Assembly (NCBI GenBank): GCA_017545535.1 | Contig: JAFWMS010000002.1 | Location: 31,116-95,115, forward strand | From: Clostridia bacterium | GTDB lineage: Bacteria; Bacillota; Clostridia; Christensenellales; CAG-138 | Reading direction: 5' to 3' | DNA length: 64,000 bases | Notes under the pieces: model-generated | Databases searched by the model: none | What the model was told of the DNA's origin: nothing | The model's input: the letters and a program-made list of their open reading frames with translations, nothing else | Shown: positions 234 to 56,737 of the stretch, in pieces | Position numbering within the stretch: position 1 is the first letter of the stretch | Layout: every line of letters begins with the position of its first letter | Position numbers and translations under genes: made by a program

Positions 234-860
234 TTGACCGCAAAAGAGGTGGATCCCAAACAAACCAGCCGAGGGGCGGCATACGACCTGTGGATGCAGG
301 CCCCCAACCCCATGGTCACGTTCCTGAAGACTCTGGACGTGACGAACCTGGTCAGGGTCGGCCGAAAGCGGGGGCTGAAGTTCAATATGCTGATGGACTG
401 GTGCATCGGCAAGGCCGCCGCGGGGATAGATGAATTCTATCTGCTGCCTGTGGGGCAAAAACTGCTGCGGTACGACAGTCTGGCGGTCAACACCATCGTG
501 AGGAACCGGGCCGGGGGCGTCAGCTCCTGCGATATCCGGTTCAGTGAGGATCTGCGCGCCTTTACCGAAGAATACCTGGCCTGCACCGCCCAGTCGGCGG
601 AAACGGGCCGGGACCGGGACCTGTCGACGGATCACATGGTCATCGGCACCTCCGCCATCACGGAAACGGAGCTGGACGGGGCCGTGGGCATGAACAGCGG
701 CGTCTTCAACAACCCCTTTTTGATCTGGGGCCGTTACCGGAAAAAGCTGTTTCGATACCACTTGCCCCTGTCCTTTCAGTTCCACCACACCCAGATGGAC
801 GGGGCCCAGGCGGGGCTGTTTTTGGAAACGCTGCAGCGGGAGATGGACGCGCTGATATAG
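234..860 (+). CDS. Chloramphenicol-acetyltransferase (CAT)-fold acyltransferase
   Basis: ORF 138..860. The C-terminal LPLSFQFHHTQMDGAQAGLFLETLQREMDAL matches the CAT catalytic HH..DG region. TTG at 234, preceded by aggggaaagagg, gives a CAT-typical ~208 aa; the start is uncertain (138, 234 or 291). Confidence 0.7.
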   Translation: MTAKEVDPKQTSRGAAYDLWMQAPNPMVTFLKTLDVTNLVRVGRKRGLKFNMLMDWCIGKAAAGIDEFYLLPVGQKLLRYDSLAVNTIVRNRAGGVSSCDIRFSEDLRAFTEEYLACTAQSAETGRDRDLSTDHMVIGTSAITETELDGAVGMNSGVFNNPFLIWGRYRKKLFRYHLPLSFQFHHTQMDGAQAGLFLETLQREMDALI

Positions 861-872
861 AGAGGAAACGAC

Positions 873-2021
873 ATGGAATACAAAGAGAGCATCACCTTAA
901 AGGACGGGCGGACCTGCGTCCTGCGAAACGGCACCTTCGCCGACGGCCAGGCCATGCTGGACATCTATCTTCTGACCCACGGGCAGACGGATTTTCTGCT
1001 CTCCTACCCGGACGAGGCCTCCATGACCGCCGAGCAGGAGGCCCTCTTCCTTCGGGAGCGGACGTTGAGCGACAACGGGATCGAGCTGCTGGCGGAGGTG
1101 GAAGGGAGGATCGTGGGGGCGGCGGGCATCGGCCCCGTGGGCAAAAAGGAGAAGGTCCGGCACCGGGCGGACTTCGGCATCAGCGTCGACGAGCGGTACT
1201 GGCATCTGGGCATCGGCCGGGCGTTGACCCGTGCCTGCATCGCCCTGGCCCGGCGGGCGGGATACGCCCAACTGGAGCTGGAGGCCGTGGCGGACAACCA
1301 GGCGGCCCTGGCCCTCTATGAAAGCGTGGGCTTTCGGGAATACGGCCGGAACCCCCGGGGATTCCGCTCCCGGCTGACGGGCTGGCAGGAGCTGGTCTAT
1401 ATGCGGCTGGAGCTGGAAGAACAGGCGGCCGGGGAGCCGGAGGAGGAAGGCAGCGCCCTCATCCAGGCGGCCGTCGCCTATGTGCAGGACCTGTTTCAAA
1501 ACGACTTCGGCGGCCACGACGCGGCCCACACCCTGCGGGTGTATCGAAACGCCATGGACATTGCCGGGAGGGAGCCCCCCTGCGACCGGGAGATCGTGGC
1601 CCTGGGGGCGCTGCTCCACGACGTGGACGATCACAAGCTCTTTGCCACGGAAAACAATGAGAACGCCCGCCGCTTCCTGGCGGCGCAGGGCGTGGATGAG
1701 GCCCGGATCGAGGAGATCTGTCGGGTGATCAACGCCGTCTCCTTCAGCCGGAACCGGGGCCGGCGGCCCGAGACCCCCGAGGGCCGGATCGTCCAGGACG
1801 CGGATCGGCTGGACGCCCTGGGCGCCGTGGGCATCGCCCGGACCTTCGCCTACGGCGGGGCCCACGGCCGATCGCTGGAGGCGTCCATCGACCATTTTCA
1901 TGAGAAGCTGCTGCTCCTCAAGGACGAGCTGAACACGGACGAGGCCCGACGGCTGGCCGAGAAGCGGCACGGGTTCCTGAAAGCGTTTCTGGCGGAATAT
2001 GAAGAGGAGACCCGGGCGTGA
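873..2021 (+). CDS. GNAT N-acetyltransferase fused to an HD-domain phosphohydrolase
   Basis: 382-aa ORF. The N-half has a GNAT core (RHRADFGISVDERYWHLGIGRALTRACIALARRAG). The C-half has HD signatures (HDAAHTLRV, LLHDVDDHK, QDADRLDALGAVG). Confidence 0.75.
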   Translation: MEYKESITLKDGRTCVLRNGTFADGQAMLDIYLLTHGQTDFLLSYPDEASMTAEQEALFLRERTLSDNGIELLAEVEGRIVGAAGIGPVGKKEKVRHRADFGISVDERYWHLGIGRALTRACIALARRAGYAQLELEAVADNQAALALYESVGFREYGRNPRGFRSRLTGWQELVYMRLELEEQAAGEPEEEGSALIQAAVAYVQDLFQNDFGGHDAAHTLRVYRNAMDIAGREPPCDREIVALGALLHDVDDHKLFATENNENARRFLAAQGVDEARIEEICRVINAVSFSRNRGRRPETPEGRIVQDADRLDALGAVGIARTFAYGGAHGRSLEASIDHFHEKLLLLKDELNTDEARRLAEKRHGFLKAFLAEYEEETRA

Positions 2022-2566
2022 AAGGCGGAGATCGGCTGACCGTCGGCGGGGAGACGTATGCCGTCCTCCGGCTCCTGGGCCATGGGAAGGGCGGCTATTC
2101 CTACCTGGCTGAGGCCGGGGACGGGCGGCAGGCGGTGGTGAAGCAGATCCACCACGAGCCCTGCAGCTACTATACCTTCGGGGACAAGATGGCGGCGGAG
2201 CTCCACGACTACGACCGGCTCCGGGCGGCGGGGATCCCCGTGCCAAAGCTGCTTGCCGTGGACCGGGCGGCGGAGCGGCTGGTGAAGGAATACGTCGACG
2301 GCCCTACCGTCTTCGAGCTGGTCCGGGACGGGGCGGCCGTGGAGCCCTATCTGGAGCAGGTGCGCGCTATGGCGGCCCGGGCCCGGGCGGCGGGGCTGAA
2401 CATCGACTACTTCCCCACCAACTTCGTAGCGCAAGACGGCCGGATCTGGTATATCGACTACGAGTGCAACGAATACATGGACCAATGGAACTTTGAGAAC
2501 TGGGGCGTCCGCTACTGGTCCCGGACGCCGGAATTTGAAACGTATCTAAAGGAGAGAGAAACATGA
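2018..2566 (+). CDS. Small protein-kinase-like (RIO/Kdo-type) protein
   Basis: 182 aa with 4-nt overlaps to both neighbouring genes. Kinase-like elements are the Gly-loop LGHGKGGYSY, the Lys in VVKQI, and NIDYFPTNF / YIDYE. Confidence 0.5.
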   Translation: MKGGDRLTVGGETYAVLRLLGHGKGGYSYLAEAGDGRQAVVKQIHHEPCSYYTFGDKMAAELHDYDRLRAAGIPVPKLLAVDRAAERLVKEYVDGPTVFELVRDGAAVEPYLEQVRAMAARARAAGLNIDYFPTNFVAQDGRIWYIDYECNEYMDQWNFENWGVRYWSRTPEFETYLKERET

Positions 2567-3246
2567 AGATATTGGTGTTCAACGGCAGTCCCAAAGGGAA
2601 GAAGAGCGACACCATGCACGTCACCCGGGCCTTTTTGGAGGGGATGGCGGCGGCGGGGGAACAGCAGGTGAAGATCGTCACCGCCGTGGAGCAGCACGTG
2701 GAATACTGCACGGGCTGCTTCAGCTGCATGCACAACGGGGGCACCTGTATCCACGACGACGACATGCGGGGCATTTTGGAGGAGATACTGAAAAGCGACC
2801 TGCTGATCTTCAGCTTCCCCCTCTACTGCTACGGCATGCCCGCGCCCCTGAAGGCCATCATCGACCGCATCCTGCCCCTTTCCAAGATGACCATGGAGAA
2901 GGTGGGCGACCGGTACGAGCACGTGGGCCAGGCGGACTATTCCCACCTCAAATACGTGATGATCTCAGGCTGCGGCTTCCCCAACAGTCGGCAGAACTTC
3001 GAGCCCGCGGTGGCGCAATTTAAGCTCCTCTTCCCCTGCGATCACACCATTATCACCGTGCCCGAGAGCCCCATGTTCAACGCCCCCGAGGCGGCGGTGG
3101 TCACCGTCCCCCGGCTGCAGCAGGTGAAGGAAGCAGGGCGGCAGTACGCAAAGACGGGCAGGATCGACCCCGACCTCCTCTCCGCCATCTGCTCCCCCAT
3201 GATCCCTGAGGCGCAGTACGCGGCCATCGTGAACGGGGAGGCGTGA
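2563..3246 (+). CDS. Flavodoxin-like NAD(P)H-dependent FMN reductase / iron-sulfur flavoprotein family
   Basis: MKILVFNGSPKGKKSDT..CTGCFSC..LLIFSFPLYCYGMPAPLKAIIDR is typical of this family. Confidence 0.7.
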   Translation: MKILVFNGSPKGKKSDTMHVTRAFLEGMAAAGEQQVKIVTAVEQHVEYCTGCFSCMHNGGTCIHDDDMRGILEEILKSDLLIFSFPLYCYGMPAPLKAIIDRILPLSKMTMEKVGDRYEHVGQADYSHLKYVMISGCGFPNSRQNFEPAVAQFKLLFPCDHTIITVPESPMFNAPEAAVVTVPRLQQVKEAGRQYAKTGRIDPDLLSAICSPMIPEAQYAAIVNGEA

Positions 3247-3249
3247 TCC

Positions 3250-4206
3250 ATGACCATACGGACGAAACAGTTTCAGCTCCTGACCGATGCGGAATTGGCC
3301 TGGGAGCTCATGACGGACGTGTTCACTCCCGACGAGTGCAACGGCCCGGCGGCTCCCTTTTTCGAATACGCCCTCACTTCCTCCTGGCAGGACAAGACCT
3401 ACCTGCGCCTCGATCGGTTCTGGCTGGACGGGGACAAGCCCGTGGGGTTCCTGTTCTATGAGGACGATCCCAATCGGCTCCACTTCGTCCTCCGTCCGGG
3501 GTACGAAGCCCTGGCCGGAGAGATGATCGACTATGGTGAGACCGCCTTTCCCGCCTTCGGTGAGCCCCGGGAGCTGATCTTGAACAGCGGTCAACGTTCC
3601 CTTATCCAGGCAGCGGAGGCGCGGGGGTACAGGGCCGTGGATCGGGAGGAATACAAGGTCTTCGATTTTCGGACGGGGAAACTGGATCATCCCCTGCCGA
3701 CAGGCTACCGTTTCGTGGACCCGGGCCGGGTGGACCCCCTCAAAGCCGCTCGGTGCATGTGGGAGGGATTCAACGAAGGCCGGGGTCCTTTCACCGGTTG
3801 GGAGATCCCCGGCACCGGCCCTCACGAGCTATATCAGAGCGTTCTGGGCGCCTCATCGGCCCCCTCCCCCCACGCCACCTACGAGCGCACCGTGGTTATT
3901 GCCGATGAGAATGGAGACTACGTCTGCTTCGCGGGTATGTGGTGGGTGGAAAAGAACAAGCTTGCCTATCTGGAGCCCCTGTGTACCGTCCCCGAGCATC
4001 GGCACAAGGGGTTGGCCGCTGCGGCCCTATCCCAACATGACCGGCTGTTGCGGCCCCTGGGCGCCCGGATCATGACCGGCGGTGTCAGCGACTTCTACCG
4101 CCGAATCGGCTACCGGGACGCCATTATGACCCTGCATTTTGCGAAGGAGCCGGAAAATGCGCTGTGTGACTTCGGCTTCCCCGGGACAGATTTGAGCAGA
4201 GATTGA
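3250..4206 (+). CDS. GNAT family N-acetyltransferase
   Basis: 318 aa with a C-terminal GNAT core (YVCFAGMWWVE..VPEHRHKGLAAAALSQ). Confidence 0.6.
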   Translation: MTIRTKQFQLLTDAELAWELMTDVFTPDECNGPAAPFFEYALTSSWQDKTYLRLDRFWLDGDKPVGFLFYEDDPNRLHFVLRPGYEALAGEMIDYGETAFPAFGEPRELILNSGQRSLIQAAEARGYRAVDREEYKVFDFRTGKLDHPLPTGYRFVDPGRVDPLKAARCMWEGFNEGRGPFTGWEIPGTGPHELYQSVLGASSAPSPHATYERTVVIADENGDYVCFAGMWWVEKNKLAYLEPLCTVPEHRHKGLAAAALSQHDRLLRPLGARIMTGGVSDFYRRIGYRDAIMTLHFAKEPENALCDFGFPGTDLSRD

Positions 4207-8937: not shown

Positions 8938-10653
8938 ATGAAAAAGATCATTGCCCTATTTATCTGCATCTTCATGCTGCTGCTCCCCTGCCTGGTCCGG
9001 GCGGAGGAATCGCCCGCCACGCCCATCTCCTCCCTGGGGGATATGCGCAAGATCGCCCAGAACCCCTCAGGCCGGTACGAGCTCACCTGCGATATCGACA
9101 TGTCGGCGACGGAGACGCCCTGGACGCCCATCCCCTTTTCTGGGGAGCTGGACGGGAAAGGGCATGGGCTCTACAACCTGCGGATAAGGACCACGGGCGA
9201 GGACACTGCCGAGACCTATGACGGGAACCGCAAAAGGTACACCTCTGTCTTCGGAGGGCTCTTCTCCATCCTGGACGGGGCGCGGGTATCGAATCTGACC
9301 ATCGTCAACGCCACCGTCTTTGTGGACACGGATCAGCACTGCTTCCTGGGGGCGCTGGCAGGGTACGCCCAAAACGCCGTCATCGAAAACTGCACCGTCC
9401 AGACCCGGAACCGTTTGACCCTCACCTCCATCAACGCGGGCGTGGGGGGACTGGTGGGCTTCTCCTTTATGAGCAAGTTTACCGATTGCGCGGTGGACGC
9501 AGAGCTCGTTTTCACCGACGTCAATCAAGAGGTCCTCTGCGAGGAATTTTTAGGGGGTGTCTACGCCTCCGGCTGCGGAAGTATCGATCGTTGTGACGTT
9601 CGGGTCCGGGGCTTTGCCGAGGTGTACGGGTACGCTCACAGCGGCGGGGTCATCGGTATGCACAAGCTGCAACATGGATCGGATCCTCTTTCCCGCCTCG
9701 CCAATACCACCGTGGATGCCGAGATCACCTTCTTTGAGATCACCCGCTCCCGACGGGCGTACTGCACGCCATATGTCGGCGAGAATCCCGGAAAAGACTG
9801 CCGGGTCGTGGATTGTACTATCAGCAATTTCAAGAAGACCGAGGTAAAAAAAGCCGAGCCTCTGTCGCCGGAGAAATGCGATGCTCCCCGATACACCAGC
9901 GAGATCGTGGAACCCACCTGCACGGAATGGGGGTACACCGTCTATACCTGCACCGGCTGCGGCTATAGCTTTAAGGACGAGTACATCGCCCCTGAACACC
10001 AGTACCAGGTGGTGGAGACCGTGCCGGCCACCTGCACCGAGGAGGGGATGGAGACCCTCCGTTGCGTGGGCTGCGGCGACAGCTTCACCCGATCGCTGCC
10101 TGCCGCCGGGCATCGGTATCAAGAGACCGTTCTGGAGCCCACCTGCACTGAGGCTGGGGCGCGGGTGTTCACCTGCGAGGTCTGCGGCGAAAGCTATTCG
10201 GAGGAGATCCCCGCCAAGGGGCACGTGCCCGGGGAATGGGTCACGAGCCGGGAGCCTGAAATCGACGTAGAGGGCGAAGAGCAGCAGCTGTGCAGCGTCT
10301 GCGGGGCCGTGGTGGAGGCCCGGGCGCTGCCGCCGATCCCCTACACCCATGCGGAGTGGATCCAGCTGGACAGCGAAACCCTGTCTCTGACCAGCGGGAG
10401 CACCGGGCACCTGGCCGTGGAGGTGTTCCCGGAGGACGCCACGGATCGTACCGTCAGCTTCACCAGCTCCGACGAGGCCGTGGCCACGGCCCGCCCCGAC
10501 GGGACGGTCCTGGCCGAGAAGCCGGGCATCGCCACACTCACCTGCCTCAGCGCCGATGGGCGGGCATCCGCCACCTGTCAGGTGACGGTCCGCTACACCA
10601 CGTGGCAGTGGGTGCGGCATTACGTTCTGTTCGGATGGCTTTGGGAAGAATGA
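8938..10653 (+). CDS. Secreted/anchored protein: signal peptide, GLUG-like beta-helix region, CxxxG..CxxCG repeats, Big_2 Ig-like domain, C-terminal hydrophobic tail
   Basis: Signal peptide MKKIIALFICIFMLLLPCLVRAEE and GVGGLVGF-type motifs. Three full PTCTExG..C..CG repeats plus one partial. The Big_2-like segment is LSLTSGSTGHLAVEVFPEDATDRTVSFTSSDEAVA. Confidence 0.6.
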   Translation: MKKIIALFICIFMLLLPCLVRAEESPATPISSLGDMRKIAQNPSGRYELTCDIDMSATETPWTPIPFSGELDGKGHGLYNLRIRTTGEDTAETYDGNRKRYTSVFGGLFSILDGARVSNLTIVNATVFVDTDQHCFLGALAGYAQNAVIENCTVQTRNRLTLTSINAGVGGLVGFSFMSKFTDCAVDAELVFTDVNQEVLCEEFLGGVYASGCGSIDRCDVRVRGFAEVYGYAHSGGVIGMHKLQHGSDPLSRLANTTVDAEITFFEITRSRRAYCTPYVGENPGKDCRVVDCTISNFKKTEVKKAEPLSPEKCDAPRYTSEIVEPTCTEWGYTVYTCTGCGYSFKDEYIAPEHQYQVVETVPATCTEEGMETLRCVGCGDSFTRSLPAAGHRYQETVLEPTCTEAGARVFTCEVCGESYSEEIPAKGHVPGEWVTSREPEIDVEGEEQQLCSVCGAVVEARALPPIPYTHAEWIQLDSETLSLTSGSTGHLAVEVFPEDATDRTVSFTSSDEAVATARPDGTVLAEKPGIATLTCLSADGRASATCQVTVRYTTWQWVRHYVLFGWLWEE

Positions 10654-23068: not shown

Positions 23069-24394
23069 TTAAACCACCAGATCCCCTTCCTCGGAGTTGA
23101 TCACCTCAAAGATCTGCTCCTCCTCGCCGGTGAGGGCGTTGATGTAGACGATGTAGAAGGTGCCGTCCTTCGTGGCCTTGAACTCGTAGCAGAGGACCTC
23201 CGTCTGCTGGGTCAGAGGGATGAGGGCAAGATCCGTGTGCTCTACCTTCAGCTCCCCGGACACATACGCCCCGGCCTGCTCCTCGGTGAGCTTCGGCCGC
23301 GGCAGCGCCCGCTGCCGGTGGTTCAGCCGGTAGTTCCTGGCGTCCAGGCCCATGACCTCCCCGGTCTCCCGGTCCATATACACCTTCACGAGGTCGCTGT
23401 ACAGGATCACTCCCGCCTGCCGGGGCGCGAAGTTCAGCACCGCCGCCCCCTGGTAGTACTGGGCGTAGGCCGCCGCCGGGTCCTCGATGCCCAGCTCCTG
23501 CAAAAAGGACAGGGCGGTTTCCTTCAGCTGCAGGCTCTCTTGGTCGCTGGGCGGATCGTTTTTGTCCCCCGTGGGCGCGCCCATAAAGGAGAGCAGCTCC
23601 CCGCCCTGCTCTGTCAGCGACAGGGACACCTGCCCCCGGCTGGGGCTCTGCACGCTCAGTTCGTAGACCGGCAGCGCCCCGGGCACGTAGACCGTGTCCG
23701 CCACGGTCCCGTCGGAGAACAGCCGCCTGGCCCGTTCCGCCGCCTGCTGGGCCGTGATCCGTTCCCCGATCTCCCCCTGGGGCGGCCGGTTCTCCGCGCT
23801 CTCGGAGAAGGGCCCGTCGTAGATCAGCGTGGGGTACTCGCTGATGGCCGCCTCGCTTTGGCTCTGCTCATAGCAGCCGGCGTCCACGTTGTCCGCCGCC
23901 ACGTAGTCCCCGCTTTGGATGGCCTCGCCGGCCACCTGCCGGATCTGGGCGCAGGCGGCCCGCATGTCGCCGAGCTGCTTTCTATCCTCCTCCGTCAGCG
24001 TCCGGCCCTGGAGTACTCGACCCATGAGGGCGTGGGCGTAATCCCCACAGCGGGTGACGAACTGGCTCATGTCGCAGCTGTCCGCGTGGGAGAGGGGCAA
24101 AAGCCCCATGGCCGCCCCCGCGCTGCCCGTAGCCCGCCACACGTCGCCCAGCAGCAGCACGCTTTGTCGCGGCGAGGACGCCGCCGAAAGCTTCGACAGC
24201 GACACGTCCACGTCGTTCAAATCGTCGTCGATCCGGCGGTACAGATTCTCGATCCGGGTCCGCTCCGCCGCCTGCCGGGCCGCCAGGGCCTCCCGGTTCT
24301 CGCCCAGCTTCACCAAAGCTGCAACAAGCCCCACCGCCAGGGCCGCCCAAATTAGTCTTCTCAATCCTTTTCTCATATCATTTACCTTTTTCAA
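23069..24394 (-). CDS. ypeB: Germination protein YpeB
   Basis: 441 aa with an N-terminal TM helix. LLLGDVWRATGSAGAAMGLLPLSH and the C-terminal EVLCYEFKATKDGTFYIVYINALTGEEEQI parallel B. subtilis YpeB (PepSY repeats). Confidence 0.85.
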   Translation of the reverse strand: MKKVNDMRKGLRRLIWAALAVGLVAALVKLGENREALAARQAAERTRIENLYRRIDDDLNDVDVSLSKLSAASSPRQSVLLLGDVWRATGSAGAAMGLLPLSHADSCDMSQFVTRCGDYAHALMGRVLQGRTLTEEDRKQLGDMRAACAQIRQVAGEAIQSGDYVAADNVDAGCYEQSQSEAAISEYPTLIYDGPFSESAENRPPQGEIGERITAQQAAERARRLFSDGTVADTVYVPGALPVYELSVQSPSRGQVSLSLTEQGGELLSFMGAPTGDKNDPPSDQESLQLKETALSFLQELGIEDPAAAYAQYYQGAAVLNFAPRQAGVILYSDLVKVYMDRETGEVMGLDARNYRLNHRQRALPRPKLTEEQAGAYVSGELKVEHTDLALIPLTQQTEVLCYEFKATKDGTFYIVYINALTGEEEQIFEVINSEEGDLVV

Positions 24395-24609
24395 TAGCAG
24401 AACACGTGGTTGCCGATCCTAAGCGCCACGGGCTTGGAGAGCATCCACTTGTTGGTGGTGTTCGCCGGGTTGTAGTAGTACAGGCACCCGTAGGTGGGGT
24501 CGTACCCGTTCATGGCGTCCCGGGCCGCCCTAAGCGCCGTTTCGTTGGGCCCCAAGTCGATCTGCCCGTCGCTCACCGCGTCGAACGCCCCGGGCTGAGA
24601 GAAGGTTTG
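24391..24609 (-). pseudogene. sleB: 5'-truncated sleB (spore cortex-lytic enzyme); only the C-terminal ~70 codons remain
   Basis: The minus-strand frame reads TGA(24610-24612)-QTFSQPGAFDAVSDGQIDLGPNETALRAARDAMNGYDPTYGCLYYYNP..IGNHVFCY. This is the C-terminal half of the SleB/CwlJ Hydrolase_2 domain. It overlaps the ypeB start by 4 nt. There is no N-terminal half, signal peptide or promoter. Confidence 0.8.
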
Positions 24610-24708
24610 TCAAGTATAGTTTTACAAAAAATCATCCTCGCTTTGGCTGAATTTCGACATAAGTGGCAATAGAAAAGACTAAGTACTTACCAATGAAAGT
24701 AAAGCAAA

Positions 24709-24948
24709 GCGCCACCCGATGGGTGGCGCTTTCCTTTGGTCTCCCCGGCGGGATCCGAGCCAACGGCCTTCCGCTTAGGAGAACTGCGACTACGCATGGC
24801 TGATAAAGTTAGACGGCATATGGAAAAACCTGAAAAACCCAGTAATTTAGGGCAAAATCGACATTGTATACTATGCTCATTCAAATCACTCTATGATAGC
24901 ATGCTCATGCAAAGTACAGTCAAAATGCAGTCAAAAGTGCAGTCATTT
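24709..24948 (-). repeat. Module copy 1: GC-rich hairpin, tRNA 3'-half relic, conserved spacer, 3 direct repeats T(G/A)CAGTCA
   Basis: Hairpin GCGCCACCC-gat-GGGTGGCGC at 24709-24729. tRNA half at 24737-24781. Shared blocks GCTGATAAAG and AATTTAGGG. Repeats at 24915-24948 with an 11-12-bp period. The module is homologous by eye to 48770-49020. Confidence 0.7.
24737..24781 (-). other. Decayed 3' half of a tRNA-Arg(CCU)-like gene (anticodon loop to CCA), no 5' half
   Basis: The minus strand reads CTCCTAA GCGGA AGGCC GTTGG CTCGGAT CCCGC CGGGGAG A CCA. The layout is canonical but the T-arm is mutated relative to copy 2. Confidence 0.6.
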
Positions 24949-24949
24949 A

Positions 24950-25294
24950 ATGGAGACGGTTGTCAGCCTTTCCAAGGGTGAGATATCGAGCAAACCCGTC
25001 CGTGTCGAGTTCTCTCTGGAAGGCCTGGACACCTCCTGTCTGCTGAACGACGCCACCTATCAGCAGATCAAGGATTACGTCCTTGAGCACATAGGACTGC
25101 ATGTCTCAACTCTGTACATCGCCCAGGTGAAGGCGAAGCATGGGATCATCGAGCGGGAGTGCTATAACAAGGCGAAGACGGAGGGAAACCGTGTGCCGAA
25201 ATGTCCGCCGGAGAAGGAGAAGGCCATTGAGGAGGCGCTGAGACATTTTCAGATGATTCCGGAAGATCAAGGTTCTTCCATTCCTGCTCAGTAA
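24950..25294 (+). CDS. Small conserved protein of a type I recall from Firmicutes mobile elements (function unknown)
   Basis: ORF 24893..25294. The conserved-looking core is STLYIAQVKAKHGIIERECYNKAKTEGNRVPKCPPEKEKAIEEALRHFQMI. The start is uncertain because no clear SD precedes ATG 24950. Confidence 0.45.
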   Translation: METVVSLSKGEISSKPVRVEFSLEGLDTSCLLNDATYQQIKDYVLEHIGLHVSTLYIAQVKAKHGIIERECYNKAKTEGNRVPKCPPEKEKAIEEALRHFQMIPEDQGSSIPAQ

Positions 25295-25363
25295 CGGTCA
25301 TCAGCCTTCGTAGACTGTGCTGTCTTATGCGCATATGAAAGAGGGCTGTTAGGAGAACTCAAG

Positions 25364-25600
25364 ATGTACAACTCATTTAACAACATGTGGAATTGGGACT
25401 ATATCCAACAGCAGCAAGCACTTCAGCATCATCAGAATCAGGTTTATCAGATAGCTGATTGCGCCAAGAAACTGAAAGACTTTCTTGAAAGCGCAGAGAA
25501 AATCGATCCTTCTTATGAAAAAGCCGCTTTTGAGGCATGTTGTGCCGTATTGCTTGACCACGCAAACAAGCAACGCAAAGCCAATAACATGTGGCATTGA
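25364..25600 (+). CDS. Hypothetical 78-aa protein
   Basis: A good SD (taggagaactcaag) precedes the ATG and composition is AT-rich. I recognised no motif. Confidence 0.45.
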   Translation: MYNSFNNMWNWDYIQQQQALQHHQNQVYQIADCAKKLKDFLESAEKIDPSYEKAAFEACCAVLLDHANKQRKANNMWH

Positions 25601-29453: not shown

Positions 29454-30395
29454 ATGTTTAAGTACGTCCTCAAACGGGTGCTGATCTCGGTGGTCACTGT
29501 CCTCATTATTCTCGCCGTTCTCTTTACCATGCTTCACAGCATGCCGGGCAGCCCCTTCAACGACGAGAAGATCACCGCGGTGCAGCGGGCAAATCTCGAG
29601 GCCAAATACGGCCTGGACAAGCCCCTTCCCGTTCAGTTTGTCAATTATCTCAAGGCCATGCTCTCCGGGGATTTCGGCGTTTCCTATGTCATCCAGAAAA
29701 ATATGCCCATCGCCTCGCTGCTGCGCGCACGCATTATGGTTTCAATCCGCATCGGGGTGCAGGCGGTGGCGCTCGGCACACTCATCGGGCTGCTGATGGG
29801 GATTGTGGCTGCGATGAAGCGCAACTCCTTCCTGGATACTTTCGCCACGGTGGTCTCCGTTATCGGCGTTGCCTTTCCCTCCTATGTGTTTGCCATGGCC
29901 ATGAGTTATTTTATCGGCTTCCGCCTCGGCTGGCTGCCGCTGCTGTACAGCACGGCGGACGCCGCGCGCTCGACCGTGATGCCCACGATCTCGCTAAGCA
30001 TGTTTTCCATGGCTACCGTCGCGCGCTTTGCCCGGACCGAAATGGTGGAGGTCATGGGCTCGGACTACATGCTGCTGGCCGACTCGAAGGGCATATCGTC
30101 GTTTCGGCTGCTCGGCGTACATGGTCTTCGCAATGCGCTGATCCCGATCGTCACGGTGCTCGCGCCCCTGACGGTCGAGCTGATGACGGGAAGCCTGGTG
30201 GTGGAGCAGATTTTTGCGATCCCCGGTATCGGCAGCCTGCTGGTGTCGGCGATCCAGTTCAACGACTATAACGTCGTGCTGGCGGTGGTGTTCGTTTACA
30301 GCATCATGTTCATCTCTGTGATGCTGATTGTGGACATCCTTTACGGTGTGATCGACCCGCGCATCCGTCTGGCAAAGGAGGATGCTTCAACATGA
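29454..30395 (+). CDS. ABC transporter permease (OppB/DppB-like)
   Basis: 313-aa multi-TM protein with MFKYVLKRVL.. and the SVMPTISLSMFSMATVARFARTEMVEV EAA-loop region. Confidence 0.85.
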   Translation: MFKYVLKRVLISVVTVLIILAVLFTMLHSMPGSPFNDEKITAVQRANLEAKYGLDKPLPVQFVNYLKAMLSGDFGVSYVIQKNMPIASLLRARIMVSIRIGVQAVALGTLIGLLMGIVAAMKRNSFLDTFATVVSVIGVAFPSYVFAMAMSYFIGFRLGWLPLLYSTADAARSTVMPTISLSMFSMATVARFARTEMVEVMGSDYMLLADSKGISSFRLLGVHGLRNALIPIVTVLAPLTVELMTGSLVVEQIFAIPGIGSLLVSAIQFNDYNVVLAVVFVYSIMFISVMLIVDILYGVIDPRIRLAKEDAST

Positions 30396-31435
30396 TGACG
30401 GCAAAGGAGTATGCCTCTCTCGTAGAGAAAGAGGATTTCGTACCGGCACAGAACCGGGATCTCGGCATCGATAAGGTTTACAGTGCACAGAGCTTCTGGA
30501 AAGACGCGCTGGGCCGCTTCGTCAAGAACCGCGGCGCGGTGTTCGGGCTTGTAATGATCGTGCTCATCGTATTCATGGCCTTTGCCGGTCCCGCGCTGAG
30601 CGGCTATAATTACCGCACGCAGGACATGTCCCAGCGCAACCTGCCGCCGCACATCGCGGGCTGGGAATCCGCTCCGGTTTTTTCCGGCGTCTATACCCAG
30701 TATGTCAACGGCGAGCCGATCCGCAGCAACGTCTATACCCAGAAGGGAATCGAGGATGTGACGCACATCTTCGGGACCGACGCCCTTGGCCGCGATCAGT
30801 TTGCGCGGACGTGGACCGGTACGCGCGTTTCGCTGTATGTGGCGCTGGTGGCCATCCTTATCGACACCTTTGTCGGTATGAGCTTCGGGCTGGTCTCCGG
30901 CTATTATGGCGGAAAGCTTGACTTCTTCCTCCAGCGAATCGTTGAGATCCTCTCCACGATCCCCACGACAGTGATCGTGACGCTTCTGATCGTGGTGATG
31001 AAGCCGGGCCTGACCAGCATCACCGTGGCTCTGATGATCACTGAGTGGATCGGCATGAGCCGCGTGACTCGTGCCCAGACCCTGCGGCTGAAGGAACGGG
31101 AATTCGTCCTCGCTTCCCGCACCCTGGGTGAAAGCACCTTTTCGATCATTTTCCGGGAAATCCTGCCGAACATCTTCGGCCAGATTATCGTCATGTGCAT
31201 GATGACGATCCCGAACGCCATCTTCACCGAGGCCTTTCTGGCATTCATCGGCCTGGGCATCCCCGCTCCTCTGGCAAGCCTCGGCTCGCTGATCAGCGAC
31301 GGCTTCAAGTCCATGACCATGTATCCCTTCCTGGTGCTCTTCCCGGTCACGGTGCTGGCACTGCTGATGCTGAGCTTCAACCTGATGGCCGACGGCCTGC
31401 GCGACGCCTTTGACCCCAAGATGAAGGAGATGTGA
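30392..31435 (+). CDS. ABC transporter permease (OppC/DppC-like)
   Basis: 347-aa multi-TM protein with ATGA overlap. The EAA-loop is EWIGMSRVTRAQTLRLKEREFVLASRTLG. Confidence 0.85.
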   Translation: MMTAKEYASLVEKEDFVPAQNRDLGIDKVYSAQSFWKDALGRFVKNRGAVFGLVMIVLIVFMAFAGPALSGYNYRTQDMSQRNLPPHIAGWESAPVFSGVYTQYVNGEPIRSNVYTQKGIEDVTHIFGTDALGRDQFARTWTGTRVSLYVALVAILIDTFVGMSFGLVSGYYGGKLDFFLQRIVEILSTIPTTVIVTLLIVVMKPGLTSITVALMITEWIGMSRVTRAQTLRLKEREFVLASRTLGESTFSIIFREILPNIFGQIIVMCMMTIPNAIFTEAFLAFIGLGIPAPLASLGSLISDGFKSMTMYPFLVLFPVTVLALLMLSFNLMADGLRDAFDPKMKEM

Positions 31436-46870: not shown

Positions 46871-48418
46871 ATGGGAAAAGCTTATTTTGTCGGCATCGAT
46901 ACCGGCACCAATTCCAGCAAGGGCGCTCTCATCGGCGAGCAGGGCGAGATTCTCGCCCTGCACAGCACGGAGCACAGCATGGAAAATCCCCAGCCCGGTT
47001 ACTACGAGCATGACGCCGAGCGCGACTGGTGGGGTGATTTCTGTACGATCAGTCGGGAACTGCTGCGCAAGAGCGGCGTGGACGCGAAGGACGTCAAGGC
47101 TGTCGGGATCAGCGCGCTCGGCGCAGATTGCGTTCCGGTGGACGAACATTGCCGCCCGCTTCGCAAAGCAATCCTCTACGGCATCGACGCGCGGGCCACG
47201 GATGAGATGGCTGAACTGACCGCGCTCTACGGGGAGGAGCAGATCCTGAAATGGTACGGCCGTCCGCTCTGCTCCAGCGACGTGATGCCGAAGATCCTGT
47301 GGATCAAGCGCAGGGAGCCGGAGGTCTACGCCAGGACGCACAAGTTTCTCACGGGATCGAGCTACATTACCGCCAAGCTGACAGGCCGCTATGTCGTGGA
47401 CCGTTTTCTCGGCCTGGCCAGCTTCAATCCGCTGTATGATCCGCAGACACGCAAGCCGGTTCCGGAGTACTGCGCGCCGATCTGCCGACCGGACCAGCTT
47501 GCCGAAATCCTCGAGGCGGCGGAGGTCGCAGGCACCGTGACGGCCGAGGCCGCCGCCGAGACGGGGCTTGCCGAGGGGACGCCGGTCATCACCGGAACGG
47601 ACGATTCGGGCGCCGAGGCGATCAGCTGCGGCGTCGTGGAGAGCGGGAAAATGATGCTGCAGCTGGGCTCGTCAGTCTACATGATCCTCGGCACAGACAG
47701 CCTGATCGACGACGAGCGGCTCTGGCGCGAGGAGTTCATCGTCCCCGGCTTATGCGATATCTCGGCCGGAACCAACACGGCGGGCAGCCTGACCAAATGG
47801 TTCCGCGACGAGCTGTTTCCGGACGCCCTTGCCGCCGAGCGCTCGGGCGGAGAAAACGCCTATCAGCGCATGTTGGAGGGCGTTGCGGAGATCCCGCCCG
47901 GCAGCGAGGGGCTGATCACGCTGCCCTACTTTGCCGGGGAGCGGACGCCGATCAACGACCCCGACGCCCGCGGCGTGCTCTTCGGGCTGACGCTGCAGCA
48001 TACGCGCGCGCATCTCTACCGCAGCGCACTGGAGGCGGTCGGCTTTTCCGTCAATCAGCAGATTCGAATCATGGAATCCCATCCCGAGGCGCGCATCGAC
48101 CGGATCATCGCCGTTGGCGGCGGCGCGCAGAATCCGATTTGGATGCAGATTATCGCCGACATTCTCGGCAAGGAGATCTCAACGCCGCAGGTGACGGTCG
48201 GCGCCTGCTACGGCGATGCGCTGATGGCGGCGCTGGGCGTCTCTTTTCCGGGCTTTGAGAACTATGCCGCGCTGACGCGCTATGTCCGCGCCGGCAGAAC
48301 TTACGCGCCCGATCCGAAAGCGCACGCGGCGTATGAGCAATATCAGGCAGTCTACGACGCGCTGTACGATTCTACAAAGGAACTGGCGCACAAGCTCAGT
48401 TCTTTTGTAAGAGGATAG
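46871..48418 (+). CDS. FGGY-family carbohydrate kinase
   Basis: ATG 46871 lies inside ORF 46667..48418. YFVGIDTGTNSSKGALI.. and ..VGGGAQNPIWMQIIADILG are FGGY signatures. Confidence 0.85.
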   Translation: MGKAYFVGIDTGTNSSKGALIGEQGEILALHSTEHSMENPQPGYYEHDAERDWWGDFCTISRELLRKSGVDAKDVKAVGISALGADCVPVDEHCRPLRKAILYGIDARATDEMAELTALYGEEQILKWYGRPLCSSDVMPKILWIKRREPEVYARTHKFLTGSSYITAKLTGRYVVDRFLGLASFNPLYDPQTRKPVPEYCAPICRPDQLAEILEAAEVAGTVTAEAAAETGLAEGTPVITGTDDSGAEAISCGVVESGKMMLQLGSSVYMILGTDSLIDDERLWREEFIVPGLCDISAGTNTAGSLTKWFRDELFPDALAAERSGGENAYQRMLEGVAEIPPGSEGLITLPYFAGERTPINDPDARGVLFGLTLQHTRAHLYRSALEAVGFSVNQQIRIMESHPEARIDRIIAVGGGAQNPIWMQIIADILGKEISTPQVTVGACYGDALMAALGVSFPGFENYAALTRYVRAGRTYAPDPKAHAAYEQYQAVYDALYDSTKELAHKLSSFVRG

Positions 48419-48711
48419 CATGGAAGAAACAGCACCTTCGTTTTGGAGGACAACCACTGGCTATGCCATTGGGAAAAAGTGCTTTAGCAATGGACAAAAA
48501 GAAAGCTCCCCATTTGAGTAGTTGAATAGTATGCACTCCTGTCGAACCATACATTACATTCTTAGGAGCACATGAAGCATGCGTTAAAAAAGTCAGATAT
48601 TTAGGGACAAATGTTTATTATGAAAAATGAGTGTGTGCCTTTGATGCCGTATAATCATTGCCTCAAAAATACAATCGTTACAGCTGAAATAATGGGTACT
48701 CTTTCAAAAAA

Positions 48712-49020
48712 TGCAGTCAAAAGTGCAGTCAAAACTCTTTGTAGCCCTGTTTTTGTGAAACAGGAAACAGAAAAAAGTCCCTAATTTAGGGACTTTTTTG
48801 GCCTCCCCGGCGGGATTCGAACCCACGGCCTTCCGCTTAGGAGTACTGTATTCGAAGGTAGCTGATAAAGCCAGACAGCGTCTAGGTTTTTTCAAAAAAA
48901 CCACTGAATTAGGTAAAAATAACGTTTGTTCACCATGAGAATTCTGCGAACTCTGCATCAGTTTGCTCACGCATTGTGCAGTCAAAATGCAGTCAAGTGC
49001 AGTCAAAAGTGCAGTCAAAT
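48712..49020 (-). repeat. Module copy 2 (attP-like): 2 direct repeats, AT-rich hairpin, intact-looking tRNA-Arg(CCU) 3' half, conserved spacer, 4 direct repeats
   Basis: TGCAGTCAAAAG/TGCAGTCAAAAC at 48712-48735. Hairpin AAAAAGTCCCTA/TAGGGACTTTTT at ~48770-48798. tRNA half at 48798-48842. TGCAGTCAA(A)n x4 at 48977-49020, all in the same orientation. Confidence 0.7.
48798..48842 (-). other. 3' half of a tRNA-Arg(CCU)-like gene (anticodon loop to CCA), no 5' half
   Basis: The minus strand reads CTCCTAA GCGGA AGGCC GTGGG TTCGAAT CCCGC CGGGGAG G CCA. This gives loop, anticodon-stem 3' strand, variable loop, T-arm, acceptor 3' strand, discriminator and CCA. The upstream sequence cannot form the acceptor, D or anticodon 5' strands. 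Confidence 0.65.
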
Positions 49021-49101
49021 TCAAACCCTCACATATCCTTTCACAGAGCGACTTCCAAGTATGTTTTACTGTTTGTTTTTTCTTCTAGAAGATTAACTGT
49101 A

Positions 49102-49130
49102 TGGACTGTTGCGCCTGTTCCTGATATACT
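49102..49130 (+). promoter_or_regulatory. Promoter of the 1235-aa gene
   Basis: TGGACT at 49102-49107, a 17-nt spacer, then extended -10 TGaTATACT at 49122-49130. SD aaaggagaa precedes ATG 49180. Confidence 0.5.
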
Positions 49131-49179
49131 ATGTTCATCATCCTTCATCTTTGACTATTAGACTGACAAAGGAGAAACT

Positions 49180-52100
49180 ATGTCAAAACCATTCCCCGAT
49201 ATAACATGGCCAGTCTTTGAAGTATGCAATGCGAATAAGACAAAAGCCTTTGAAGATATGACACGAAAGCTTTTTAATTCTTATTTGGCGGGAAATCAAA
49301 CGTTAGTTTCAGATGGGATTAATCCGGGAATTGAGGTATTGCCGGTTTTGGAACCTGAAGCAAAAGATGATGCGCAAAGAAGATGGATTAGTTTTCAATC
49401 TAAGTACTTTGAAAAAAACACGAATTATAAGGACATTCTGGATTCTGCAAAACAGATAGTTAAGCATTATAAAGGTAAACTTGATTTAGTGTATTTGTTT
49501 TGTAATAATTCCCTTAAGATCTCATGTGATGGATACAAATCAGTTAAAAATCTGCTTGCAGAGGCGGGAATAGAACTACACCCAATAACCAACGAAATGA
49601 TTCTTGATCTTGTTTCCAAGTATCCTGAAATATATAATTATTATTTTCGGCCAAGAGATATCCCCGATTGTTCTCATGATAATCAATCTAGTTTCACGAT
49701 TGATCAAATAGTGTATTCGCTGAAAAACAGCCTAGATGCTGGGAAAATGCCTCCGCAAGATCCTGCTCTTTTAGTTGGTCTTATTCAAGAGAAGCTTGAT
49801 GTTTGCCGAGGTTTTGTTCTTAATATGGAACTGGATCAATTAAAACAGGAATTAGAAAAACTATTTTCTCATGATTTATGCGGAGTTGAGGGAAGTGACA
49901 CCTTACTGTTTTATCAGAACATTCTGAATATACATGAAAGAAAACCCATTCAAAATACGAACACTGATTTGATGCATAATGCAGAAATTGAATGGTTGAA
50001 AGCATTTTATGAAAATACATATGCTATTTCATTTGAGGAGTTCAATAAATACTCGGATGAAATTAGAATTCTCGTAATAGACCAATTGTTTGTCACAAAG
50101 CATTGGAACACGATAATATCTCTTCATGATCAATCGCTTACTCTGGGGAGTGCATGGGAACAGATGGAGCTTTACTATGGCCTCTCACTCTTCAATCTGC
50201 AGCGTTATGAAGAAGCAAGTGCCGTATTACATGGTTTGTTTGAAAAAACTAAGTGTCCAGCGCATGAAATGTATTCTAAGTTTGCGGATATTCAAGTTAT
50301 AAACAGTTTGTTCAGAACAGGAATGAATGCAAATGCCGATATGCTTGCCGAACTGGTCTCTTCTTTAGATGCCTATAAATGCATTAAGCAATATCAAGCA
50401 TCTGATCTTTTGATAGCCTTGCTGACCTTGGAGTCGTATTGTTATCTTGGGTTATCAAAAAAAGAGTATTTGGAAAAGGCCATTTCAACATATGACTCTT
50501 TTTCTGAGAGTGTACGCCTTAATGATATCGTTCGATTCTACTATGCATTATCCGTTGAACTTAATGGGAACATAGATAAAGCGCTAGAACTATATGAAAC
50601 GATGGAATGGAAAGATGACGAAACCATTGCGTATAGATACCTGTTCTGCCTAATCATGATCGGGCAAACCGAAACAGCCTATCAGAAATTCTATCTATTA
50701 CATGATGTTGCAAAAACAGAAAGGATATATGCACTTTCTTTGCTTGCTCTTCATAAAACAGACGTACAGATGGCTCGAAGTCTAGCAAAGAAGTGGCTTG
50801 AAGGGCATTCCAGCGATTTTTTGAGTATTGTTTCATTCATCGTGTATGTGGAAGATCGCGAGATTATTTCTTCGTTGATAATGCCACAATTACATGAGCT
50901 TATGACAACAGAAAGAATATCTTGTTTACCTTTTCGTCAACGTATTGAACTGATTATTTGGTTAGCTCAAAACATTGAAATTGAATTGATGGAACAAGTA
51001 CTTAAAACGATTGATGATGTTAATAACCTGAATGAATCGACAATAGTAGGAATATACCGGTCTTTAGCAGCAGCATGTGAAAAACCGAATGTTTTTATCA
51101 ACCCGATTCTTGAACCAACTACTATAGCCAAGTCAATTGAAACAATTACTGACAGATTCCTTAATGCAGGGATAAACAGAGAATTGTTTTTGCGAATCAA
51201 AATAGCGTGTGTCAATGCCAGACAAAGTTATATTAGCGCATTACAGTATTCAAAAGAATTGTTTGAACTTACTCAAGACGAAACAACCGCTAAAAACATA
51301 ATTAGTATTCTGGTATTACGTAAAGATAGTAATGAAACTGATTATCACCCATATATTGACATTTTGAAGGATTCTGAAGAACCTGACCAATGCATTACTG
51401 TTGCAGCAGGTTTATTGATGATAGGAAAGGAACAAGAAGCTGATTTATACGCATATAAAGCTATTTACTATTTAAACGGAAAAGATGACTTCAGTATCTA
51501 CAATAGTTTCTTTCAACTTGATAGTTTCAAAATGAGGTGGTTACAGGAGGATGAAGTCGTGCCCATTCGTTCTTCAAAGGGAAATGTGATTGTTACCCTC
51601 GAAGCATCTTCTTCAACTACCCAAGAAGCAAAAATGGACGTATGCCTGGATTCAGAAAAAGAATTCTCGCAAGACGGAAATAGAAGCATGGGTGTCTGCC
51701 ATATAAACTCAACAGATACAGATTATCTCAAAATCAAAAGTGCTGGACTGAATCAAGTTATAAAGCTAAAAAACGGAACATTTCAAGTAAAAAGAATCAT
51801 CCCCAGGAAAAAATTCTGCAGGGCTTTTGTGTTTAGCAAATTGCAGGCAAACCAAGAGTATTTTTCTGGGGTGATTATTTCCACGTTGCCTGAAAACCCA
51901 AAGGAAGCAATAGAACAGCTCCGAAAGCTTAGCGACAGGTCTGAACAAGCAAATACGAACCTGAAGATGTATCATTTTGAAGATAGTACCAATCTTGGCC
52001 TGCCAATTGAAGTTGTTGGATTTATGGATTATGATCGCTATCTTGGTACATCAAAGTATTTATTATTTCAACCTGATGAAGCTTTTTATTCTGGTGAAGT

Positions 52101-52887: not shown

Positions 52888-52927
52888 AATATCACTCTAT
52901 CATTTACATATCGATCTTTAGACAATA

Positions 52928-53573
52928 CTATGCAAGTATTGGCACAACGCTCGTCTGTAAATCCGGTATTATACTAGAGATATCCGTATCTGGAGATAGC
53001 CATTCCTCTGCCCTACTGTAAGGCACAATAACCGGCATGCGCGGATGAATCTCCCGGATGTTGGATGCAGCATCCTGTGACAGTATAGAGAAGCAGGGCA
53101 GTCGCTGCTGATCGGATGTCTTAATGTACAGACCTGCCAAGTACAAAGGTTCTCGATTCTCAGCATAGAAAGCGTATTTATCTTTTTTGTTCTTGTCTGT
53201 CTTATGCCACTCAAAGTAGCAGGAGGCCGGAATCAGGCAGCGCCGGTCGTTGATGCTGGTGCAGAATAGCGCCTTTTGCGGTTTCGTTTTTCAGCTCCAG
53301 AGTTGCGGTTTCACTGCGGGTGTTAAATACCAGCATGCCTTTGGTTGGATGATTGAAACCCCATTGCATGGGGAACGCTCCAATCTTCCGATGAGCCGCG
53401 GATGGGGCAATGACCGGGGCTATACAGATTCCTTGATCCAAGAACGCGATGTTCATGAAGAGAAATTCCGCAAACCAAGCAGGAAATTCCACTCTGATTG
53501 GGAGCTTGCCAATTTCTGCCATGGTGGCGATTTGGACGAAGATTGATGACTTAATAATTGTATTTATTTCCAC
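52928..53573 (-). pseudogene. Decayed SOS-response-associated peptidase (SRAP/YedK-like) gene
   Basis: The upstream frame gives APVIAP..FPMQWGFN..VFNTRSETA. The downstream frame gives RRCLIPASCYFEW..LYLAGLY..FSILSQDAASNIREIHPRMPVIV. The frameshift is near the A5 run at ~53,290. The N-terminus reads KSSIF where the catalytic MCGRF is expected, and there is no Met start. Confidence 0.7.
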
Positions 53574-53662: not shown

Positions 53663-53696
53663 TTTGTCAGCAAATCCATCCCGAGAGAGCGGCGAC

Positions 53697-55052: not shown

Positions 55053-55145
55053 CGGGCAAAGCCCTTCAGTCTGGTAAAAAACTAAAGCAAAAAGGATACG
55101 CCCTGTGAGCGGCGTATCCTTTTCTGCAATCGTATTTGCGCTGCT

Positions 55146-55787: not shown

Positions 55788-55895
55788 ATCGTTTTCTCCC
55801 TTGATTCGTCGTTATCCATGAGGATACCCCCTGTTTCGACCCTTGTCAATGGGGAGCAAGAGCGATTCTTTTGACCTCTACACTCAAAAAAACAA

Positions 55896-55934
55896 AAATT
55901 ATAGGTTGATTTTATCCTATAATTTGCGTATACT
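55896..55934 (+). promoter_or_regulatory. phd-doc promoter with a 10-bp inverted-repeat operator
   Basis: AAATTATAGG at 55896-55905 and CCTATAATTT at 55916-55925 bracket -35 TTGATT (55906-55911). A 17-nt spacer leads to -10 TATACT at 55929-55934. Confidence 0.6.
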
Positions 55935-55951
55935 GTTTTCGGAGGTACGAT

Positions 55952-56580: not shown

Positions 56581-56608
56581 AGAGTAAGCATCGAAGGCCT
56601 GATTTGCC

Positions 56609-56683
56609 ATCTTTACTTTCTGGGTGCTTATCTCCGAGAAAAGTAAAGATTTTTCATCAGTTTTTGCCAAAAAAGTAAAGATT
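56609..56683. repeat. AAGTAAAGAT inverted plus direct repeat cluster
   Basis: ATCTTTACTTTC at 56609-56620 is inverted relative to GAAAAGTAAAGAT at 56638-56650. A third, direct copy AAAAAAGTAAAGATT lies at 56669-56683. Confidence 0.7.
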
Positions 56684-56702
56684 CCACCCAAAACCATGAT
56701 AA

Positions 56703-56729: not shown

Positions 56730-56737
56730 GTTAGCGT

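Follow-up and report, generated by a model that had tools for sequence, protein, structure and literature searches.

A TnpX-family mobilizable island probably splits the germination gene sleB at one fixed position in rumen Clostridia

Introduction

Among the elements that split sporulation-related coding sequences, skin in sigK (B. subtilis, C. difficile) and SPbeta in spsM each carry a serine recombinase, persist in their lineage and restore the reading frame by precise excision. Both target genes of the mother cell, the only compartment in which they are excised (PMC4191935). The gin element in gerE of B. cereus ATCC 10987 is a non-prophage element with cargo and a site-specific recombinase, whose excision reconstitutes the gene (PMC5595907). 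For yin in yabG of C. botulinum, as in active lysogeny, integrated and excised forms coexist and excision switches the host gene (PMC10747680). Tn4451 and Tn4453 are mobilizable elements with a very short att core and a TnpX-type recombinase that ends in a DUF4368 tail; Tn4451 is ~6 kb, has low target specificity and encodes a MobV relaxase, TnpZ, and its TnpX acts on 2-bp cores without a recombination directionality factor (RDF) (PMC5704250). Here we analyze a 64,000-nucleotide stretch of Clostridia bacterium DNA (GenBank assembly GCA_017545535.1, contig JAFWMS010000002.1, positions 31,116 to 95,115; hereafter the window), in which a mobilizable island of the TnpX family, locked to one position in sleB, very probably splits this gene from within and would restore it upon excision.

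Like skin and SPbeta, the sleB island is a large element with a serine recombinase that splits a sporulation-related gene, persists in its lineage and would restore the frame by precise excision. Unlike them, it is not prophage-like, its recombinase resembles TnpX rather than SpoIVCA or SprA, no RDF has been identified for it, and sleB-ypeB looks forespore-expressed by promoter motif and synteny. Its non-prophage character, cargo and reconstitution of the target by excision are those of gin, from which it differs in target gene, host class and recombinase lineage; excision of gin in sporulation is experimental, whereas that of the sleB island is deduced. With Tn4451 and Tn4453 it has in common the recombinase type with its DUF4368 tail, the very short core, mobilizability, a predicted promoter across the circle joint and, in relatives, TnpV at the left end. 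Unlike Tn4451, the island spans 40-55 kb or more, occupies a single sleB codon boundary, has a MobA/VirD2-type relaxase with MobC, and gathers defence cargo, metabolic cargo and tandem copies. The coexistence of integrated and excised forms recalls yin, although yin is prophage-like and known from a single strain, and the sleB island is clade-wide, on hundreds of contigs.

No element that splits sleB is described in the full-text literature searched (intervening element, serine recombinase, excision, attB); the papers on SPbeta, gin and yin treat mother-cell targets only and leave sleB unmentioned (PMC5595907; PMC4191935; PMC10747680). The sleB island thus differs from known gene-intervening elements in target, recombinase and element type, and probably in compartment too. 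The distinction matters because the known split sporulation genes (sigK, spsM, gerE, spoVFB, spoVR, yabG) belong to the mother cell, where the rearranged chromosome is discarded. A selected, clade-wide split of sleB-ypeB raises the question of how the germline keeps the element.

Results and discussion

Only the end of sleB lies upstream of ypeB

The window contains ypeB at 23069-24394 on the minus strand, with Pfam matches to YPEB_N, YPEB_PepSY1-2 and PepSY. Its start in the open reading frame (ORF) list is a TTG at 24394, overlapping the sleB stop; gene callers on near-identical contigs report either this 441-aa form or a 435-aa form from an ATG at 24376, and the latter is likely the true start.

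Upstream on the same strand, the frame at 24391-24609 reads QTFSQPGAFDAVSDGQIDLGPNETALRAARDAMNGYDPTYGCLYYYNPANTTNKWMLSKPVALRIGNHVFCY and a stop codon; it starts QTFSQPGAFDAV, closes with IGNHVFCY, and has an in-frame TGA ahead of it (complement of tca, 24610-24612). The peptide matches only positions 32-100 of the 100-position Pfam profile Hydrolase_2 (PF07486; E = 6e-17), short of a complete SleB with signal peptide, PG_binding_1 and full Hydrolase_2. When intact SleB was aligned to the window by tblastn, residues 183-250 alone found a counterpart, and the N-terminal half had no match across all 64 kb. An earlier note, made from the letters of this DNA, had claimed both that only the last part of SleB precedes ypeB and that its N-terminal half is absent from the window, and both claims hold.

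That note had also placed the boundary at the TGA, together with a shift in composition. The TGA is there, and GC content falls from ~0.65 before the junction to 0.50-0.56 to its right; the breakpoint itself lies elsewhere. The comparison that the note had proposed, with relatives having intact sleB, was run as a DNA alignment, and homology stops at 24597/24598, 13 nt before the TGA. On the minus strand the junction is ..TCTCAG/CCCGGGG.., and the loss of homology to intact sleB can be written as ..TCTCAG/CCCGGGGCGTTCGA.. (here and below, a slash marks the break). Because homology ends there, the residues QTFS and the TGA are element sequence; the TGA falls within a conserved TTGACA hexamer at 24608-24613. 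The host side of the junction is the sleB 3' part at 24391-24597 on the minus strand (68 codons and a stop, QPGAFDAV...HVFCY); the insertion lies between codons 158 and 159 (..VIYQ/PGAF..), in the middle of the catalytic domain.

The insertion separates the sleB 3' part and ypeB from the sleB promoter. A sigma-70 promoter leading from the element end into ypeB was not found: in the integrated state the TTGACA has no -10 partner, and the sole match of the scan is weak and on the opposite strand.

The same break recurs across a clade

A YpeB scan of GTDB species representatives returned 12 loci (loci and proteins are numbered with L and P below). In seven of the 12 (L002-L008, all rumen 'RUG' metagenome-assembled genomes, MAGs), with YpeB 77-96% identical, sleB is truncated, and in five more distant loci (L009-L013) an intact sleB of 236-250 aa lies directly upstream of ypeB. 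The identical break and the 37-nt element end occur in nine further contigs. The only non-sleB sequence common to all truncated loci is this block of ~37 nt by the break, beyond which divergence is complete.

The contig collection lists a 61-aa ORF of the sleB fragment in 207 of its index blocks, with contigs of 445 and 525 kb among them. The 37-nt block does not vary in those metagenome contigs either, although the cargo genes next to it are of at least six kinds. The protein of the sleB 3' fragment is identical between two species-level backgrounds. The only damaged copy seen is that of the RUG11425 representative (L005 5229-5393), which has a 40-nt frameshifting deletion in the fragment; this may reflect genuine decay or a fault in the MAG.

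The missing half and naturally intact alleles

In relatives the missing half occurs as an ORF of 155-158 aa beside spoIIR. The N-terminal 155 residues of an intact relative were used as a protein query, and the best 120 matches were examined. They comprise 101 short proteins (155-170 aa) and 19 long ones (221-225 aa). All 101 short forms terminate in (A/S)G(V/I)IYQ, exactly at the break, and all 19 full-length proteins read VIYQPGAF. The commonest short form, P0069, occurs in 250 index blocks and lies downstream of spoIIR and other core genes. Its VIYQ is followed by TAG ATATACT, the left element end (left-end sequence TAGATATACT), so that the locus continues from TAG ATATACTGTGAA... into a 56-aa ORF, a TnpV-family gene and variable cargo (SIR2, TerB_N, Macro, AAA_14, type I restriction-modification). 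The earlier note had left two options, an insertion or a deletion of the 5' part. The insertion is supported: relatives encode the 5' half in an ORF of its own, which stops exactly at the break, and the opposite end of the element comes next.

Intact alleles from the same strain background point the same way. The protein P0111 equals P0069 plus the C-terminal half, with ypeB directly after it, on three contigs (L034-L036). Two split forms account for L034 between them: its positions 1-760 are 99.1-99.2% identical to L025 and L031, its positions 758-4193 are 96.4% identical to L004, and the overlap of the two homologies is exactly CAG (positions 758-760). A second species also has both forms, its intact P0093 matching the C-half of L008. 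The joining of attL and attR at CAG, which restores an intact ORF, therefore corresponds to natural alleles, seen in relatives and not in the window's genome. Assembly chimerism through shared k-mers was ruled out as the source of the intact contigs, because attL and attR share only the 3-bp core. One further candidate, P0002, was rejected as the intact allele of the window's own species at a DNA identity of only 86.6%.

In the joined allele P0111, residues 30-224, nearly the whole mature length, align to SleB of B. anthracis/cereus (4fet, E = 8e-61), and the 128-aa catalytic domain (4f55) corresponds to residues 98-224; the split thus cuts the catalytic domain. Taken in aggregate, it is well supported that the island is widespread in a clade of rumen Clostridia and is precisely removable in nature.

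Attachment sites and element ends

Attachment sites were compared among attB of L034-L036, attL of L024-L031 and L117, and attR of the window and L002-L008. The three sites read ..GTCATCTACCAG/CCCGGGGCG.. (attB), ..GTCATCTACCAG/TAGATATACTG.. (attL) and ..GACAAACCTTCTCTCAG/CCCGGGGCG.. (attR). They share 3 bp, CAG on the sleB strand, which lies at 24595-24597 of the window and is the inferred crossover site, with CA or AG as the crossover dinucleotide. Such a core fits a serine recombinase with a 2-bp strand-exchange overlap.

The right end of the element, TTTTTTGTAAAAC-N5-TTGACAAACCTTCTCTCAG at 24598-24634 on the minus strand, is a putative recombinase half-site and the only element sequence common to all lineages. 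It has one copy in the window, where none is expected by chance, and no second or hybrid copy of the element ends lies inside the window. When the two ends are joined in silico, the resulting attP shows no convincing dyad symmetry by eye. All copies seen occupy the same sleB position. Window 24391-24634 is very probably an attR, in which the 3' third of sleB abuts the right-hand terminus of an integrative mobilizable island that inserts site-specifically.

The recombinase and its link to the sleB junction

The large serine recombinase that the earlier note saw further right lies at 59710-61545 on the minus strand, which is the sleB strand, and carries the domains Resolvase, Recombinase, Zn_ribbon_recom and DUF4368. 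Among solved structures the closest is the TnpX catalytic domain (2mhc, E = 1.3e-43), as compared with E = 4e-6 for SprA/YokA. A scan of the candidate coding ORFs of at least 150 aa found no second recombinase in the part of the element that the window covers.

Several loci connect this enzyme to the split gene. Orthologues with 74-76% identity adjoin the sleB 5' junction in L118, in the order spoIIR, sleB-5', 58-aa ORF, recombinase, and in L122, in the order spoIIR, sleB-5' (ending VIYQ), 60-aa ORF, 5 kb of cargo, 63-aa ORF, recombinase. At the other junction, the recombinase end is only 6.3 kb from sleB-3' in L002, L123 and L125. Close homologues form a tight group (72-98% identity), separated by a gap from the next ones, which reach at most 61%. 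Around homologues of at most 60% identity, 80 metagenome loci contain no sleB piece within 10 kb, so these more distant recombinases use other sites. A tblastn search against plasmids gave no named relative, with matches of at most 47% identity. We infer that the window's recombinase performs the reaction between attL and attR.

One contig carries both the sleB 5' half and a close recombinase. NODE_351_length_93322, which holds L029, has sleB-5' at 29,997-30,473, recombinase P0326 at 79,539-81,374 on the same strand and the element right end at ~85.6 kb; P0326 falls in a cluster built at 90% identity, and the representative of that cluster shares 98% identity with the window enzyme. Here, the right end abuts CAGATAGAGGTTGACGG.., a degenerate left end, instead of sleB-3', and the same joint is present in a second sample (L134). 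The joint, ..TCTCTCAG/CAGATAGAGGTTGACGG.., is located at L133 15990-16060 and L134 15980-16050, and is what would arise if a second element (ABC transporter, MCRA) had been added in tandem at this site.

The start of the recombinase gene is overlapped by a 63-aa ORF (61542-61733, minus strand), a paralogue of the 56-60 aa ORF at the sleB-5' element end in relatives; the two share an N-terminal MNMTRxIxNTxYQVKV, and the L122 counterpart has a weak TnpW match. No homology to known RDFs was found, and the candidates for this role are the 56-63 aa ORFs and the TnpV gene downstream of the host promoter. Upstream of the pair formed by the 63-aa ORF and the recombinase is a conserved motif of ~40 nt, CGACAAAACTTG(C/T)ATCGCACC(A/G)CATGCGTGGGAA, at ~61745-61785 (minus strand) of the window and ~9600-9640 of L122, where it is partly repeated at ~9680-9720. 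This motif could be an operator or an oriT-like site.

Promoters at the element ends and upstream of sleB

The TTGACA hexamer is invariant in every right end, 13 nt before the core end, and TATACT stands unchanged 4 nt after the core in 11 of 11 left ends, the divergent L118 and L122 among them. Both hexamers lack a partner as long as the element is integrated. Joining the ends in silico places them 17 nt apart, an 11 of 12 match to the vegetative consensus, and the small ORF lies downstream of this predicted promoter, with TnpV after it or, in the compact form of L118, the recombinase. According to the title of Lyras & Rood 2000 (cited in PMC13023037), the circular intermediate of Tn4451/Tn4453 forms the tnpX promoter.

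Forespore sigmaF/G promoters have a -10 element of the form GGnnAnAnT or CATACTA. The sleB 5' half is preceded by a conserved motif, GTTTA/GGTTA(A/G), N14-15, GGGCAYACT, which resembles such promoters, and the same motif type precedes spoIIR in L118 and L122. No sigmaE- or sigmaK-like promoter was recognized. In B. subtilis, spoIIR is sigmaF-dependent (PMC3738446) and SleB is made in the developing spore (PMC13556211). From these motifs, sleB appears to be forespore-expressed here, unlike the known split sporulation genes. In three loci the sleB start follows the spoIIR stop by ~14 nt and has no promoter motif of its own (L118 8611-9713, L122 2727-3774, L010 4620-5995), which suggests a spoIIR-sleB(-ypeB) operon in these Clostridia.

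Both halves of sleB are under selection

Purifying selection acts on both halves of sleB. Across split lineages, dN/dS is 0.05-0.13 for the 68 codons of the 3' fragment (dS 0.26-0.97), 0.08-0.34 for the 5' half (dS 0.24-1.45; this range omits the near-identical pair L024/L029, which has zero non-synonymous change), 0.11-0.31 for ypeB (dS 0.17-0.89) and 0.16-0.47 for spoIIR (dS 0.21-1.84). Change is synonymous only in the eight codons that separate the junction from the GTG of the 61-aa ORF, so selection acts on the sleB frame rather than on a stand-alone small gene.

A working model and its competitors

If the island is excised as its ends suggest, the recombinase would join attL and attR at CAG, yielding an exact sleB-ypeB operon and a circular element. 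The joined ends of the circle would create a strong vegetative-type promoter and so favour re-integration, following the logic of Tn4451. Excision may be coupled to sporulation: the forespore-type host promoter would read through sleB-5' into the first genes of the element, with no terminator predicted on the way, and in the compact L118 form the genes reached would include the recombinase itself.

Several observations weigh against this reading. The earlier note had envisaged an insertion of more than 39 kb with the missing half beyond position 64,000. The large island is there, at more than 42 kb; contig record L015 (ERZ27256856:k141_857689, 73,969 bp), in which the window is reverse-complemented (window position = 67087 - record position), extends 3,086 nt past 64,000 through a Fic gene and a partial ORF to the contig end with no sleB 5' half. 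Contigs of 445-640 kb that carry the same 3' half have no member of the ten SleB-N clusters among those listed. The frameshift of L005 in sleB-3' counts on the same side, as does the predicted attP circle junction, TTGACAAACCNNCTCTCAGTAGATATACTGT, which has no match in IMG/VR or the metagenome contig collection. In the window, 35 kb separate the recombinase from attR and probably more than 20 kb separate it from attL, distances at which read-through from the host promoter cannot reach it. The recombinases of L118, L122 and the window share only ~75% identity despite the close relationship of the L118 and L122 hosts, so horizontal spread occurs and not only co-descent. Strict co-divergence of recombinase and host was likewise rejected, the L118 and L122 recombinases being 76% identical and their SleB-N halves 93%. 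Finally, if gain and loss of the element are frequent, the low dN/dS could come in part from selection on element-free cells. Even so, the intact alleles and the shared ends make an island that splits sleB, and whose excision would restore it, the very probable reading, and the window's genome presumably still has its sleB 5' half.

The compartment of excision is less certain. One tentative model, itself doubtful, places it in the forespore and thereby in the germline. Read-through from the sigmaF/G-type host promoter would drive excision, giving a spore with intact sleB-ypeB and a non-replicating circle, and at germination the sigmaA-type promoter of the joint would express the recombinase and return the island to sleB. 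If true, this would be a reversible, once-per-life-cycle rearrangement of the inherited chromosome.

A skin-like switch would instead confine excision to the terminal mother cell, where sleB-ypeB would be expressed, while the spore genome keeps the island. This would follow the rule for every characterized sporulation gene-intervening element (PMC4191935; PMC5595907) and would give stable vertical inheritance with no re-integration step. Set against it are the promoter data: the sleB-5' motif is the same as that of spoIIR, sleB lies within ~14 nt of spoIIR in L118, L122 and L010, and no sigmaE- or sigmaK-like promoter was recognized, while the Bacillus counterparts are sigmaF-dependent (spoIIR; PMC3738446) or made in the forespore (SleB; PMC13556211). 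We regard such a switch as unlikely.

It is more improbable still that the insertion is a dead end, in which a mobilizable island with a preference for the sleB site has inactivated sleB-ypeB for good and programmed excision does not occur. On this account the cells would use other cortex-lytic enzymes or seldom need spores, and the intact alleles would represent strains never invaded. The lack of a circle junction in IMG/VR or metagenome contigs, the L005 frameshift, the imperfect co-divergence of recombinase lineages with hosts, the relaxase and MobC with their indication of horizontal mobility, and the fact that intact contigs are few and short are all consistent with it. An abandoned locus is nevertheless hard to reconcile with both sleB halves and ypeB remaining open at dN/dS 0.05-0.34 over dS up to ~1, or with the frequency of the split form (101 of the 120 best matches; 207 and 250 index blocks). 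The 37-nt end, too, has been kept despite at least six replacements of adjacent cargo. In Bacillus, moreover, YpeB is unstable without SleB (PMC13556211), so retention of ypeB implies that SleB is made.

That the sleB 5' part was simply deleted from the window's genome, leaving a decaying pseudogene fused to the island, would account for the absence of an N-half in the window and the 3.1 kb beyond it, and of any listed SleB-N variant on the large contigs with the exact 3' half. It is very improbable, since the break nucleotide and the element end are identical to those of contigs having the 5' half, and the 3' fragment protein is identical in two species-level backgrounds and under purifying selection. 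Scarcely credible is the notion, entertained by the earlier note as a way of being wrong, that the 61-aa ORF (GTG at 24576) is a stand-alone conserved small gene: gene callers do report it and it is conserved, yet conservation of the sleB frame begins at the junction, eight codons upstream of the GTG, the GE(S/A)RGE region of the catalytic domain sits in the other half, and intact alleles identify the fragment as the tail of sleB.

For an island that very probably splits sleB and would restore it on excision, two consequences follow. In uncultured rumen Clostridia a Tn4451-type mobilizable element has become a large hotspot, locked to one site, in which defence and metabolic cargo gathers. In addition, automated annotation will call sleB missing or a pseudogene, so such organisms could be mis-scored as germination-deficient.

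Contents of the island

A related contig has an island of 55 kb. In the window, ~110 nt in from the element end, a bidirectional terminator hairpin (24706-24732; 12-bp stem, 8 GC pairs, T-rich tails on both strands) is kept in L004, L006 and L007 and is predicted to insulate ypeB and the joint from element transcription. It is followed on the plus strand by two small ORFs of 114 and 78 aa (24950-25600), called as genes in L001, L124 and L128, for which no Pfam match was found.

The next 23 kb (25772-48418) hold metabolic cargo recognized by Pfam: four GntR/UTRA regulators, an Opp-type ABC transporter, SIS, two PfkB kinases, three amidohydrolases, an amino-acid permease, BtpA, an FGGY kinase and two sugar-phosphate isomerase-like proteins (xylose-isomerase-like TIM barrels). 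The block looks like a sugar-amine (Amadori-type) utilization island. At 48400-53200 GC drops sharply to 35%, around a single 1235-aa ORF (49180-52887, plus strand; segment GC 0.35-0.37) with weak PIN-TPR-GreABC and TPR matches below Pfam cut-offs; it may be a defence gene from a low-GC donor. RUG14713 (L002) lacks 29.0 kb (window 24632-53629) and has 131 nt instead, a difference that covers the two small ORFs, the metabolic cargo and the 48.4-53.6 kb segment.

Between this segment and the recombinase, Pfam identifies a MATE efflux protein, a DUF5052 lipoprotein, a Phd-Doc toxin-antitoxin pair and a GmrSD type IV restriction enzyme (53664-59655), a block also found between recombinase and sleB-3' in L002, L123 and L125. 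Beyond the 63-aa ORF, on the minus strand, lie a MobA/VirD2-type relaxase (61888-63270; Pfam Relaxase, E = 3e-39) and a MobC/NikA-like protein (63261-63605; Pfam NikA-like and MobC), both called genes in L015, and the element continues through 63606-64000 past the window end into the L015 extension described above.

Defence cargo accumulates in the island: GmrSD with a DUF4268 tail, Phd-Doc, Fic, a TIR-domain protein and type I restriction-modification HsdM/HsdR occur across window 56962-59655, L014 1-6102 and L117 19476-20468. Other strains carry SIR2, TerB_N, Macro/ADP-ribosylglycohydrolase and MNT-HepT. The cargo varies among strains with identical ends, and that beside the 37-nt end has been replaced at least six times.

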